Source of the DNA: Casimicrobiaceae bacterium
GTDB taxonomy: Bacteria; Pseudomonadota; Gammaproteobacteria; Burkholderiales; Casimicrobiaceae
Direction of reading: 5' to 3'
Assembly: GCA_044226535.1 (NCBI GenBank)
Contig: JBGAGT010000015.1
Coordinates: 43,552 to 107,551 of the forward strand
DNA: 64,000 bases
Shown: positions 8,852 through 9,553 of the stretch, one piece after another
Numbering within the stretch: the first letter of the stretch is position 1
How the letters are laid out: each line of letters starts with the position of its first letter
Notes under the pieces: generated by a model
Databases searched by the model: none
Told to the model about the DNA's origin: nothing
The model's input: only the letters and a program-made list of their open reading frames with translations
Translations under genes and position numbers: made by a program

Positions 8852-9553
8852 ATGCGAACCCTCGATCGCCGTCGCTTCCTCGGCAGGAGCGTCGTGCTCC
8901 TCGCCACAGCCGCCCCGGGCTTCACCGCGCTCGATGCGCTGGCGGCCGTGCCGAGCCTCATCACCTGGCAGGGGCGCCTCACCGACGCCACGGGCGTTCC
9001 GCGAAACGGCAACTTCTCGATGGTGTTCCGCCTGGTCGACGACATGGGCAACGCGCTCGCACCCGCGTGGAGCGAAACGCACGCGGCCGTGGTCGTGCGC
9101 AACGGCTTCTTCTCGGTGCGGCTGGGCAGCAACACCACGCTCGACCCGGCGACGTTTTCCGGCGCCCCGACCGACGTATTCGGGCCGCTGGTGTTCCTCG
9201 AGGTCACGGTCAACGGCGAGACGCTCACCCCCAACGCGCGGCTCACCAGCGTGCCCTTCGCGCTGATCGGCGGCGCGGGCGGCGCGCCCGGCCCCACGGG
9301 ACCCACGGGAGCGGCCGGCGCGACCGGCGCGCAGGGCAACCCGGGGTTCACCGGCCCCACCGGTCCCACGGGCCCCATCGGCCCGACCGGGCCCGGCAGT
9401 GGCGAGACCGGGTCGACCGGCGTCACCGGAGAGACGGGTCCCAGGGGCCCCACCGGAGAGACGGGCCCCACCGGGGAGACGGGTCCCACCGGAGCAACAG
9501 GTCCCACCGGCGCGACTGGACCCACGGGCCCCACCGGCCCCGCGCCCCCGTGA
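8852..9553 (+). CDS. collagen-like triple-helix-repeat protein with twin-arginine (Tat) signal
   Basis: [31 protein letters not shown] contains an RRxFLG Tat motif. A globular domain of about 100 aa follows ([18 protein letters not shown]...). From about nt 9272, 30 G-X-Y triplets (14 + 16, split by one Ser) run to the stop, and 21 of 30 have Thr at Y. Confidence 0.8.

Follow-up and report, generated by a model that had tools for sequence, protein, structure and literature searches.

How a collagen-like protein with a twin-arginine-type leader, threonine-rich G-X-Y triplets, and no C-terminal domain might be folded and exported is the question raised by this locus. By the usual view, Tat transports proteins that are compact and folded, many of them with a bound cofactor. 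The gene was examined within a stretch of 64,000 nucleotides (here, the window), where it occupies an open reading frame (ORF) at 8852..9553 (+) that encodes 233 amino acids, as an earlier note on this DNA had reported. The frame was taken to be coding because its GC3 is 0.89 and because homologues are 46 to 79% identical over an N-terminal query of 144 amino acids (leader plus N-terminal domain); two long overlapping ORFs, 7147..10458 (+) and 8623..10485 (−), were set aside as high-GC shadow ORFs. Since homologue N termini agree on it, ATG 8852 was assigned as the start; on an identical contig, automatic annotation placed the start at a downstream GTG, so that the RR motif was lost. The product consists of an RR leader, a beta-sandwich of about 110 amino acids, 14 + 16 G-X-Y triplets, and a terminal PP-stop (Table 1). 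The triplets span residues 141 to 231 and match the earlier counts, with 14 and 16 on either side of one Ser and Thr at Y in 21 of 30 (7 + 14); Pro occupies X in 15/30. The C-terminal domain that the earlier note had found missing is indeed absent, as the protein ends in GPAPP straight after the collagen tail, and a C1q/TNF-like trimerization domain was found neither in the window protein nor at the 26 RR-type genome loci described below.

Table 1. Coordinates of the features at the collagen-like locus within the window.
Feature	Position	Strand	Basis or remark
Intergenic region, divergent, between rplY (−) and the collagen-like gene	8560..8851	+	Promoter and RBS presumed to lie here
Twin-arginine-type signal peptide, residues 1-31, with h-region and ALA↓A	8852..8944	+	RR conservation, TIGR01409, low hydrophobicity
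N-terminal beta-sandwich "base" domain, residues 32-140, MAT-N-like superfamily	8945..9271	+	AF2, weak NF053851
Collagen-like tail, 14 G-X-Y + Ser + 16 G-X-Y	9272..9544	+	Triplet count, Pfam Collagen
C-terminal Pro-Pro and TGA stop	9545..9553	+	Stop overlaps ATG of next gene (GTGATG)
Partner gene, 301 aa	9553..10458	+	Sec-type signal, SASF module, anchor-like C terminus
Signal-less putative bifunctional glycosyltransferase	10455..12491	+	Pfam TPR, weak GT2, AF2, Foldseek, synteny
GT-A domain, aa 1-160 (from ATG 10518)	10518-10997	+	
TPR domain, aa ~162-350 (from ATG 10518)	~11001-11567	+	
GH130-like five-bladed propeller, aa ~360-657 (from ATG 10518)	~11595-12488	+	

The first gene overlaps the second at 9551-9555 (TGA/ATG, in ATGA), and the second overlaps the third at 10455-10458 (TTG/TGA, in TTGA). 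On the basis of these overlaps, the three genes were assigned to one translationally coupled operon headed by the collagen-like gene. A relative that is 61% identical (L001) has the same order of collagen-like, partner, and glycosyltransferase (GT) genes beside rplY. Both the coupling of the three genes and the nature of the partner are points absent from the earlier note. Relatives were surveyed in 80 species-representative genomes, which yielded 26 RR-type and 54 Sec-type loci.

The partner has a plain Sec leader, followed by a module with two Cys at residues ~31 to 85 (SASF), an Asp-rich Ca-binding-like stretch, and a weakly choice-of-anchor-U-like domain (choice_anch_U, E 0.019). Its C terminus, VPVLP followed by a TM segment and an RRP tail, resembles IPTL-CTERM. 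TIGR04174 (IPTL_CTERM) gave no match to the window tail; it scored 25.7 bits (cutoff 20.5) on the L003 orthologue and 16.3 on that of L001, and L021 ends in AIPTLSEWGMMLL...RRR. An HMM of the SASF module matched window gene 2, L001, L003/4/6, L008, L009, and 20/26 RR-type genome loci. Matches of the Ser/Ala-rich module to NF058579 (CPR_pilus_PamT) were discarded as low-complexity resemblance, with 10 to 22 bits against a cutoff of 240.

The N-terminal domain of the collagen-like protein was modeled by AF2 with pLDDT above 90 at residues ~37 to 133. It matched NCBIfam NF053851 (Bdello_MAT_N) weakly (E 6e-9, 35.8 bits, cutoff 60, 86/162 model positions), and on this score it is best described as a superfamily related to the Bdellovibrio MAT (mosaic adhesive trimer) domain, not as a member; its counterpart in the MAT fibers is their conserved base domain. 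Foldseek comparison of the model with PDB and BFVD gave no match at E<=1e-3, and generic beta-sandwiches (dioxygenase, Big-1, BppU-N; E >= 2e-3) were rejected as non-specific. A profile of the domain found 39,598 clusters, where it lies almost always immediately behind a signal peptide; this very large family was missed in the earlier note. In Bdellovibrio, the family heads fibers that are proven trimers (PMC10769870), and the domain could nucleate a trimer of the window protein. The earlier premise that a C-terminal domain usually nucleates bacterial collagen trimers was half right: Scl1 and Scl2 are nucleated by their N-terminal V domain (PMC8968730), and the window protein has a well-folded N-terminal domain of its own. 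By analogy, N-terminal nucleation of the Scl kind is the likely logic of the window protein.

The signal-less glycosyltransferase that had been reported two genes downstream exists, and it does lack a signal peptide. Its start is probably TTG 10455, which overlaps the partner stop, with ATG 10518 as the conservative alternative. No signal peptide was seen in any of the 25/25 N termini of its family that were inspected, which instead have short hydrophilic leaders followed by LCLNMIV(K/R)NE; by these sequences the enzyme is cytoplasmic. Pfam returned TPR matches and a weak GT2 match, and the AF2 model (pLDDT 95.3) resolved into parts with separate structural relatives. The first ~350 amino acids had as best PDB matches SunS/ThuS (7msk, 7msn, 7msp; E 2e-11 to 6e-10), and the C-terminal ~300 matched the GH130 structures 5b0p, 9erg, 9fj8, and 7fip (E 1e-9 to 1e-8); Pfam and NCBIfam models gave no match to this GH130-like domain. 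The modeled architecture is thus the GT-A + TPR arrangement of peptide/protein GTs of the SunS, ThuS, and SgtA type. Invariant residues include DTGS.D.T, D85-A-D87 (DXD), E452-D453-x-R455, H572, and H586, of which E-D-x-R presumably resembles the GH130 catalytic motif. Synteny, reverse look-ups, and fold together give strong support to this enzyme as the one for the putative Thr glycosylation.

The reading that we judge on balance probable is that the coupled operon builds a glycosylated collagen-like fiber whose Thr residues are glycosylated, and whose chains fold, in the cytoplasm before export by Tat. Sugar-coating and folding inside the cell are suggested because the leader is of Tat type, the gene travels with an anchor-like partner, and a cytoplasmic GT is usually at hand. 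The subunit of 233 amino acids would be made with its Tat signal; the TPR domain of the gene 3 product would bind the repetitive G-X-T tail in the cytoplasm, its GT-A domain would O-glycosylate the tail Thr before export, and the GH130-like domain would probably add a second sugar, possibly a beta-mannoside. The N-terminal beta-sandwich would set three chains in register, and the uncharged, Hyp-free tail, stabilized by glycosylation, would zip into a triple helix of ~26 nm. Bann and Bachinger are said to have found in 2000 that (Gly-Pro-Thr)n triple helices are stable only when Thr is glycosylated, and nucleotide sugars are not known outside the cytoplasm. Because a folded, glycosylated fiber would be unfit for Sec, TatABC is proposed to export it, with the leader cut at ALA↓A. 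Outside the cytoplasm, the N-terminal domain would dock on the gene 2 protein, which travels by Sec, at its SASF module with the disulfide bond; an IPTL-CTERM-type C-terminal anchor would keep this protein in the envelope. Gene structure, domain architecture, the family-wide RR leader, the tip-less collagen tail, partner and GT synteny, and the cytoplasmic nature and fold of the GT are shown; we infer Tat dependence, Thr glycosylation, whether folding precedes export, the formation of trimers, the docking step, and where the fiber ends up.

A bolder proposal, which we regard as possible and rather doubtful, gives Tat a natural substrate in the form of a rigid collagen triple helix with O-linked sugars (~26 nm here; up to ~70 nm in relatives). 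A dedicated bifunctional GT-A/TPR/GH130 enzyme would glycosylate the trimer in the cytoplasm, where it would also be assembled; folding that depends on glycosylation would dictate the export route; and the SASF/IPTL-CTERM protein would be the receptor of the MAT-type base domain. A rigid rod of 26 to 70 nm would be a Tat cargo without precedent. Literature searches for collagen-like proteins with twin-arginine or Tat signals, and for Tat with cytoplasmic glycosylation, returned nothing relevant; sugar-coating and folding before export is not known for bacterial collagens.

The RR leader tracks a collagen-only tail, which the genome survey found at 26/26 RR-type and 0/54 Sec-type loci, and the combination of N-terminal domain and collagen-only, tip-less tail recurs in 51/53 long RR-leader proteins. 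GT homologues flank 21/26 RR-type loci versus 1/54 Sec-type loci, and reverse look-ups from GT homologues led to Thr-rich collagen genes in 4/4 cases, including neighbors without the N-terminal domain and partner (L090, L091). One of these, L091, has an independent architecture in which a Tat-like leader is joined directly to G-X-T collagen and an IPTL-like anchor, without the N-terminal domain. An NJ tree placed RR-type proteins in one main, nearly monophyletic clade; few evolutionary events therefore underlie the statistical associations, and the tree does not bear out many independent origins of the Tat-collagen association, with L091 as the one clearly independent case. Hosts of the family are uncultured Betaproteobacteria, Acidobacteriota, Binatia, and "Deltaproteobacteria."

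These data were weighed against an unlikely alternative in which the leader is genuinely of the Tat kind and what crosses is a folded N-terminal domain with an unstructured, unglycosylated tail, with trimerization after export and a GT that acts on another substrate, such as the partner protein or a polysaccharide. Hydrophilic segments without structure are tolerated by Tat; the GT is missing nearby at 5/26 RR-type loci and in the L003-L009 group, and the AF2 tail is of low confidence. In some RR-type members (P0151, P0198) the triplets are charged and not rich in Thr; the feature that goes with Tat may therefore be the collagen-only tail and not glycosylation. HMW1 and AIDA-I adhesins are glycosylated in the cytoplasm and yet exported by Sec, and glycosylation alone therefore does not force the use of Tat. 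However, sister proteins export the same N-terminal domain with Sec leaders (L023, L024, L027; P0139-P0150), so that this domain does not itself require Tat and gives no reason for it. The GT also accompanies Thr-rich collagen where the N-terminal domain and partner are both lacking, and its GT-A + TPR layout typifies enzymes that act on peptides and proteins.

The tail itself matched Pfam Collagen (PF01391; E 2.4e-12, 46.9 bits, cutoff 27.2) and would be ~26 nm long, provided that a triple helix forms; the AF2 monomer (pLDDT ~50) is uninformative on it. In RR-type tails (1,038 triplets), Thr makes up 55% of Y positions, and 0 to 10% of residues are charged; in Sec-type relatives with long collagen stalks (L049, L071), the stalks have Thr at 0 to 6% of Y positions and 43 to 55% charged residues, and they carry C-terminal tips. 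Thr is the commonest Y residue in bacterial collagens generally, and a Thr-rich Y position is therefore not unusual in itself. A quite unlikely reading takes the G-X-T region as an extended, heavily O-glycosylated, mucin-like spacer of polyproline-II form in a protein that is monomeric or otherwise oligomeric, with bulky glycans that block Sec and hence demand Tat. The lack of both charged pairs and Hyp to stabilize a helix fits such a spacer, as do the one-residue interruption of the repeat and the dense modification that a TPR-bearing GT suggests. Gly recurs strictly at every third residue, however, over 14 to 82 triplets across the clade, and this regularity, together with the Pfam match and the trimeric fibers headed by the N-terminal domain family in Bdellovibrio, argues for a collagen fold; GPT-rich BclA does form triple helices (PMC8968730). 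A trimeric triple helix is what the window tail is predicted to form. No further Pfam or PHROG domain was found in the window protein. Matches to PHROGs (tail fiber, collagen-like minor tail) cover the G-X-Y region only and are therefore not evidence for a phage origin, which was rejected; NCBIfam Scl and Lcl adhesin matches were likewise confined to the collagen part and far below cutoff (Scl, 49 versus 325).

The leader reads M-R-T-L-D-R6-R7-R8-F-L-G, followed by a mildly hydrophobic h-region and an A-L-A↓A site; AF2 models residues 6 to 30 as a helix. R6 and R7 are almost invariant, and the window variant D-R-R-R-F-L-G belongs to a consensus, [ST]RRxF[LI][GK], that is conserved across the clade. 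In RR-type and Sec-type proteins alike, an AxA site lies 2 to 4 residues upstream of a conserved LxxYQGRLTD. A very unlikely reading is that of an ordinary Sec signal or uncleaved membrane anchor, with a chance Arg-Arg, on a routine Sec-exported collagen-like adhesin. Its case is that high-GC genomes are Arg-rich and that the window N terminus scored 10.3 bits against TIGR01409 (TAT_signal_seq), below the cutoff of 16.7, with no match to PF10518 (Pfam TAT_signal). Searches of the full-length protein with both models found nothing, and sub- or near-threshold matches came from isolated N termini alone; among seven of these from the family, TIGR01409 was the best match of 7/7 and the sole match of five, and 3/7 passed its cutoff (17.5 to 20.0 bits). 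Against chance stands the whole motif, beyond RR alone, which is kept at 40 to 79% identity and across phyla. RR leaders average 37.6 aa with a maximal 12-residue Kyte-Doolittle value of 1.40 ± 0.36 (n=68), versus 31.7 aa and 2.57 ± 0.59 (n=231) for the Sec leaders found on this N-terminal domain in relatives; the hydrophobicity distribution is clearly bimodal (p = 3e-29), and the window leader, 36 aa in this comparison, gives 1.73. The plain Sec leader of the partner in the same operon points the same way. The Tat-type leader proposed earlier is thus supported by motif conservation and low hydrophobicity, with profile matches that lie partly below cutoff, and Tat-dependent export of the window protein is predicted from sequence. 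No Sec-avoidance basic residue was found in the c-region of the window leader, and no tat gene was found within the 64-kb window, which is uninformative on Tat use.

Truncation to a pseudogene, suggested by the C-terminal domains of Sec-type relatives, is refuted by homologue architecture, since 51/53 long RR-type proteins and 26/26 loci end just after the collagen tail, the stop is coupled to the start of a conserved next gene, and the same sequence is present in an independent assembly; the view of an intact gene with a shared N-terminal domain plus collagen layout, for which a search of relatives had been suggested, holds.

Among the closest known systems is that of Clostridioides difficile, where SgtA, a GT-A enzyme with 4 TPR encoded beside bclA3, puts O-GlcNAc on Thr of the BclA3 GPT repeats in the cytoplasm (PMC7157674). 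The window likewise pairs a Thr-rich GPT-type collagen repeat with an adjoining signal-less GT-A + TPR enzyme; the likeness to SgtA is one of domain layout, not of sequence comparison, and the window enzyme has an extra GH130-like domain. As in BclA-type glycoproteins, Thr-rich repeats (21/30 in the window protein, where glycosylation is putative) come with a dedicated adjacent GT, here in the same operon. Assembly of BclA3 and BclA takes place on the spore, within the mother cell, and involves no membrane crossing, whereas the window protein has a Tat-type leader and, unlike those systems, a diderm host of 71% GC. BclA bears a C-terminal C1q-like trimerization domain and an N-terminal exosporium-targeting motif, in contrast to the MAT-like N-terminal domain and missing C-terminal domain seen here.

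To the MAT fibers of Bdellovibrio bacteriovorus the window protein is linked by its N-terminal domain, through the weak NF053851 match (35.8, below the cutoff of 60). In MATs, a Sec signal goes with a long trimeric shaft that is not collagen and with an adhesive tip, which varies and may or may not include an S74 chaperone; in the window protein, the leader is of Tat type, the shaft is collagen, and a tip (S74 or NS74) is absent. As in Streptococcus Scl1/Scl2, an N-terminal globular domain precedes a collagen-like region; Scl proteins differ in being Sec-exported and LPXTG-anchored, with charge-stabilized collagen and an unrelated N-terminal domain. SunS and ThuS share the GT-A + TPR layout and glycosylate a ribosomal peptide in the cytoplasm before export, but they are only ~14 to 17% identical to the gene 3 product and lack its GH130-like domain. 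The residues modified by these glycocin enzymes are Cys or Ser in precursors of small bacteriocins, in contrast to the presumed gene 3 substrate, a repetitive structural protein without Cys. The C-terminal five-bladed propeller of gene 3 is like that of GH130 beta-mannoside phosphorylases and mannoside synthase and, unlike in those enzymes, is fused to a protein GT.

If the bolder proposal is true, rod-like glycosylated collagen trimers would stretch ideas of the shape and size of Tat cargo, glycoproteins would join the list of Tat substrates, and no bacterial glycoprotein and no collagen would have been known to use Tat before the window protein; the long search for the envelope receptor of the MAT-type base domain would end with the SASF/IPTL-CTERM protein. 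Gene 2 is also a candidate docking partner for the base-domain family of ~40,000 clusters, including the prey-recognition fibers of Bdellovibrio. The locus would extend to other phyla the logic of a G-X-T repeat with a dedicated GT-A/TPR GT, so far that of Firmicute spores (BclA3/SgtA), and the family suggests why the export route shifts once a membrane must be crossed. With its three genes it would also be a compact means of producing, in bacteria, collagen that is glycosylated and free of hydroxyproline.

A consensus scan of the intergenic region upstream of the operon gave no sigma-70 match, and a promoter/terminator scan was likewise empty; the sole AT-rich patch of the region is TTTGATTATACGA. 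Flanking genes have housekeeping roles (ychF, pth, rplY, prs, ispE), and the GC3 is native.

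Re-reading of the sequence recovered the collagen-like frame (gene 1) as an earlier note had described it, and a recount agreed with its tally of triplets on either side of a single Ser and with Thr at the Y position in 21 of 30; Pro occupies the X position in 15 of 30. Comparison with homologues, which begin 5 to 8 residues ahead of their twin-arginine (RR) pair, places the correct start at ATG 8852. In another assembly, the automatic call on an identical contig (L094 370-1029, corresponding to window 8894-9553; Logan SRR28480388) begins at an internal GTG and so leaves out the RR pair, which makes it likely that databases systematically overlook this family's Tat leaders. 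Giant open reading frames overlapping gene 1 were rejected as shadow frames of a 71% GC genome.

Features of the collagen-like gene, its partner, and the glycosyltransferase gene in the window
Feature	Position	Strand	Details
Gene 1 (collagen-like)	8852-9553	+	233 aa
Gene 1 leader	residues 1-31, then A	+	cleavage ALA|A; sequence
Gene 1 non-repetitive region	between leader and tail	+	~110 aa; sequence
Gene 1 collagen tail	residues 141-231	+	14 G-X-Y triplets, one Ser, 16 triplets
Gene 1 C-terminus		+	Pro-Pro then stop; sequence
Gene 2 (partner)	9553-10458	+	301 aa; Sec-type leader
Gene 2 SASF module		+	~55 aa; two or three SASF repeats, two conserved Cys
Gene 2 middle		+	Asp-rich stretch, then weakly choice-of-anchor-U-like domain (E 0.019)
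Gene 2 tail		+	VPVLP + TM helix + RRP; sequence
Gene 3 (glycosyltransferase)	10455-12491	+	likely start TTG 10455

Searching with the first 144 aa of the gene 1 product gave 14 proteins of 126 to 249 aa. All except the shortest (P0014, 126 aa) share the layout of N-domain plus collagen tail, none of the 14 carries a C-terminal globular domain, and [ST]RRxF[LI][GK] is present in every one whose N-terminus is intact. The tip-less layout is thus family-wide, which refutes the suggestion that gene 1 is a pseudogene truncated from homologues with a C-terminal domain. P0006-P0013 (209 to 218 aa) have near-identical N-domains and triplet numbers that vary between samples, a repeat-length polymorphism as also seen in BclA. 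The lack of a C-terminal globular domain claimed earlier was upheld, but a globular domain exists at the N-terminus: the AF2 model predicts a very confident beta-sandwich over residues ~37-133 (pLDDT 90-98). In Scl1/2, too, the globular domain precedes the collagen (PMC8968730), and by analogy the N-domain could register three chains. The model gave no significant structural match in PDB or BFVD. In NCBIfam, the N-domain weakly matched (35.8 bits; cutoff, 60) the N-terminal domain model of Bdellovibrio MAT fibres, a domain described as having no PDB homologue and as presumably attaching to some surface element (PMC10769870). The N-domain profile matched 39,598 clusters among 1.84 billion representatives, nearly always directly behind the signal peptide of host proteins of 100 to 2,500 aa. 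In L080 (Zixibacteria, 695-16296) and in L069, L075, and L088 (Ignavibacteria), 4 to 11 paralogous genes for Sec-type N-domain fibres stand in tandem, which recalls the repertoire of 21 MATs in Bdellovibrio, although these candidate phyla are non-predatory.

Leader type was compared with tail type in three sets: word-index matches, the top 150 representatives, and 80 loci in species-representative genomes, every one a MAG. Each RR leader accompanied a protein of N-domain plus G-X-Y only, whereas ordinary Sec leaders (MKK..., strongly hydrophobic) preceded other C-terminal domains, in a few cases a collagen stalk and then a tip. Among sequences of at least 180 aa, 51 combined RR and collagen, 2 had RR without collagen (one frameshifted collagen, one false RR), and 10 had collagen without RR (5 mis-parsed RR leaders; 5 with Sec leader, charged stalk, and tip). 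Since RR-type proteins form essentially one clade in the tree, the associated P values count relatives rather than independent events; with this reading, a collagen-only tail was found in 26/26 RR-type versus 0/54 Sec-type genome loci (Fisher p = 1e-21), and leader hydrophobicity was 1.40 versus 2.57 (p = 3e-29). Mean leader lengths were 37.6 and 31.7 aa, respectively; Tat leaders are typically longer and less hydrophobic than Sec leaders. The Tat model TIGR01409 was the top match for 7/7 family leaders tested and the sole match for 5; 3/7 passed its cutoff, and the window leader scored below it (10.3 versus 16.7). A sister group (L023, L024, L027) exports the same N-domain with Sec leaders, so the N-domain cannot be the cause of Tat use; that cause must be sought in the tail or in how the tail is modified. 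Thr fills 55% of Y positions in RR-type tails, which are almost uncharged; long Sec-type stalks (L049, L071) have 0 to 6% Thr and 43 to 55% charged residues.

The signal-less glycosyltransferase noted downstream was confirmed as gene 3, whose product of 657 to 678 aa (depending on the start) lacks a signal peptide. TTG 10455 is favoured as its start because it lies upstream of the family-conserved LCLNMIV. This motif also lies upstream of ATG 10518, where the public protein P0272 begins, and the gene is probably annotated too short. SunS and ThuS are glycocin S-glycosyltransferases that modify peptides in the cytoplasm. They are the top PDB matches (E 2e-11) of the GT-A plus TPR module predicted for residues ~1-350 in the AF2 model of the gene 3 product (pLDDT 95.3 for the model); residues ~360-657 are modelled as a five-bladed propeller resembling GH130 beta-mannoside phosphorylases and a mannoside synthase (E 1e-9). 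The DXD, DTGS.D.T, and E-D-x-R motifs are invariant in 100 homologues. Among enzymes characterised by experiment, the nearest analogue is SgtA of C. difficile, a GT-A enzyme with four TPRs encoded beside bclA3, which adds beta-O-GlcNAc to Thr of GPT repeats (PMC7157674). A gene 3 homologue adjoins the collagen gene in 21/26 RR-type loci (18 strong, 3 weak) versus 1/54 Sec-type loci. Conversely, four of four homologues looked up on long contigs lie beside Thr-rich collagen genes: L092 holds the full triad, and L090 and L093 other collagen proteins. In L091 (4289-4993), a Tat-like leader (FSRRTILAHGAALAAS...AAAQ) is fused straight to G-X-T collagen and an IPTL-like anchor without an N-domain, directly upstream of the homologue; as read from this ORF, which an assembly gap (N/X) interrupts, L091 represents an independent architecture that again combines Tat, G-X-T, and glycosyltransferase. 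The L093 collagen-like protein (1885-3003, minus strand) has an RR-containing hydrophobic segment (ATRREVVRRLGLAAAMVPVVV) ~100 aa in, behind a cytoplasmic-looking N-domain, and its gene also lies near a very large multi-glycosyltransferase gene.

The SASF module, a two-Cys part of the gene 2 product, is matched by its HMM directly downstream of the collagen gene in 20/26 RR-type genome loci; of the six without a match, four stop at the collagen gene or shortly after it, leaving L014 and L031 as exceptions. The window, L001, L003/4/6, L008, and L009 likewise have a match on the 3' side of the collagen gene, and several Sec-type loci are matched too. Because orthologues carry textbook IPTL-CTERM sorting tails (TIGR04174; L003, 25.7 bits versus a cutoff of 20.5; L021 ends AIPTLSEWGMMLL...RRR), the gene 2 product is a candidate for anchoring the N-domain in the envelope. 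Small orthologues (129 to 144 aa) lack the Asp-rich stretch and choice-of-anchor-U-like domain, which are therefore an inserted lineage-specific module that L001 also has; the stretch (30 residues) resembles thrombospondin-type-3 or calcium-binding repeats. Acidobacterial partners (L026, L032, L054) end not in IPTL-CTERM but in PVELMSFVIE, PVELQSFSVD, or PVHLQRFTAE, a different, unrecognised motif.

Cytoplasmic assembly and glycosylation followed by Tat export, as hypothesised earlier, gained support from glycosyltransferase synteny and the leader/tail association; the route as a whole we infer. The GT-A/TPR module would glycosylate Thr of the G-X-T tail in the cytoplasm, with the GH130-like domain possibly extending the glycan; the N-domain would register three chains, and the tail, once glycosylated, would form a triple helix of ~26 nm (12 to 70 nm across the clade). 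Tat would export the folded product, with cleavage at ALA|A, and the fibre would dock on the Sec-exported, disulfide-bonded, IPTL-CTERM-anchored gene 2 product. The rationale is that, to our knowledge, nucleotide sugars occur only in the cytoplasm and an already formed helix cannot pass Sec, and that (Gly-Pro-Thr)n needs Thr glycosylation for a stable helix. Spore-formers use the same G-X-T glycosylation chemistry with no membrane to cross; in diderms, Tat would solve the export problem that cytoplasmic glycosylation and folding create.

The single origin of the RR-type clade weighs against this route, and a rigid rod of such length would be an unusual Tat cargo. Some clade members lack an adjacent glycosyltransferase or have charged triplets, and other adhesins that are glycosylated in the cytoplasm pass through Sec. 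The chains may instead trimerise after export, although Sec export of the same N-domain in sister proteins gives that reading no reason for Tat. Less probably, the tail might be a mucin-like spacer, against which stands an above-threshold Pfam Collagen match (E 2.4e-12). That the leader is a Sec signal, as its sub-threshold score might suggest, fits poorly with the family's conserved RR motif and Tat-like hydrophobicity.

Full-text literature searches turned up neither a collagen-like protein targeted to Tat nor a case of Tat export following cytoplasmic glycosylation. The components (bacterial collagen, GT-A/TPR protein glycosyltransferase, Tat leader, MAT-type base domain, IPTL-CTERM anchor) are of known kinds; their combination is new, and is conserved in uncultured Betaproteobacteria/Burkholderiales, Acidobacteriota, Binatia, and "Deltaproteobacteria".

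In this three-gene operon, the gene 1 TGA overlaps the gene 2 ATG at 9551-9555, and the gene 2 TGA overlaps the TTG at 10455-10458. The cassette (window 8560-12588) lies between rplY and prs, inside an otherwise conserved ychF-pth-rplY/prs-ispE housekeeping block, and occupies the same position in L001, a 61%-identical relative. Its native composition (GC3 0.89 to 0.94; gene 1, 0.89, similar to adjoining housekeeping genes) argues against recent insertion. Towards the other end of the window (55163-63513) lie gyrB, dnaN, dnaA, rnpA, and yidC, placing the cassette ~45 to 50 kb from the chromosomal origin region.
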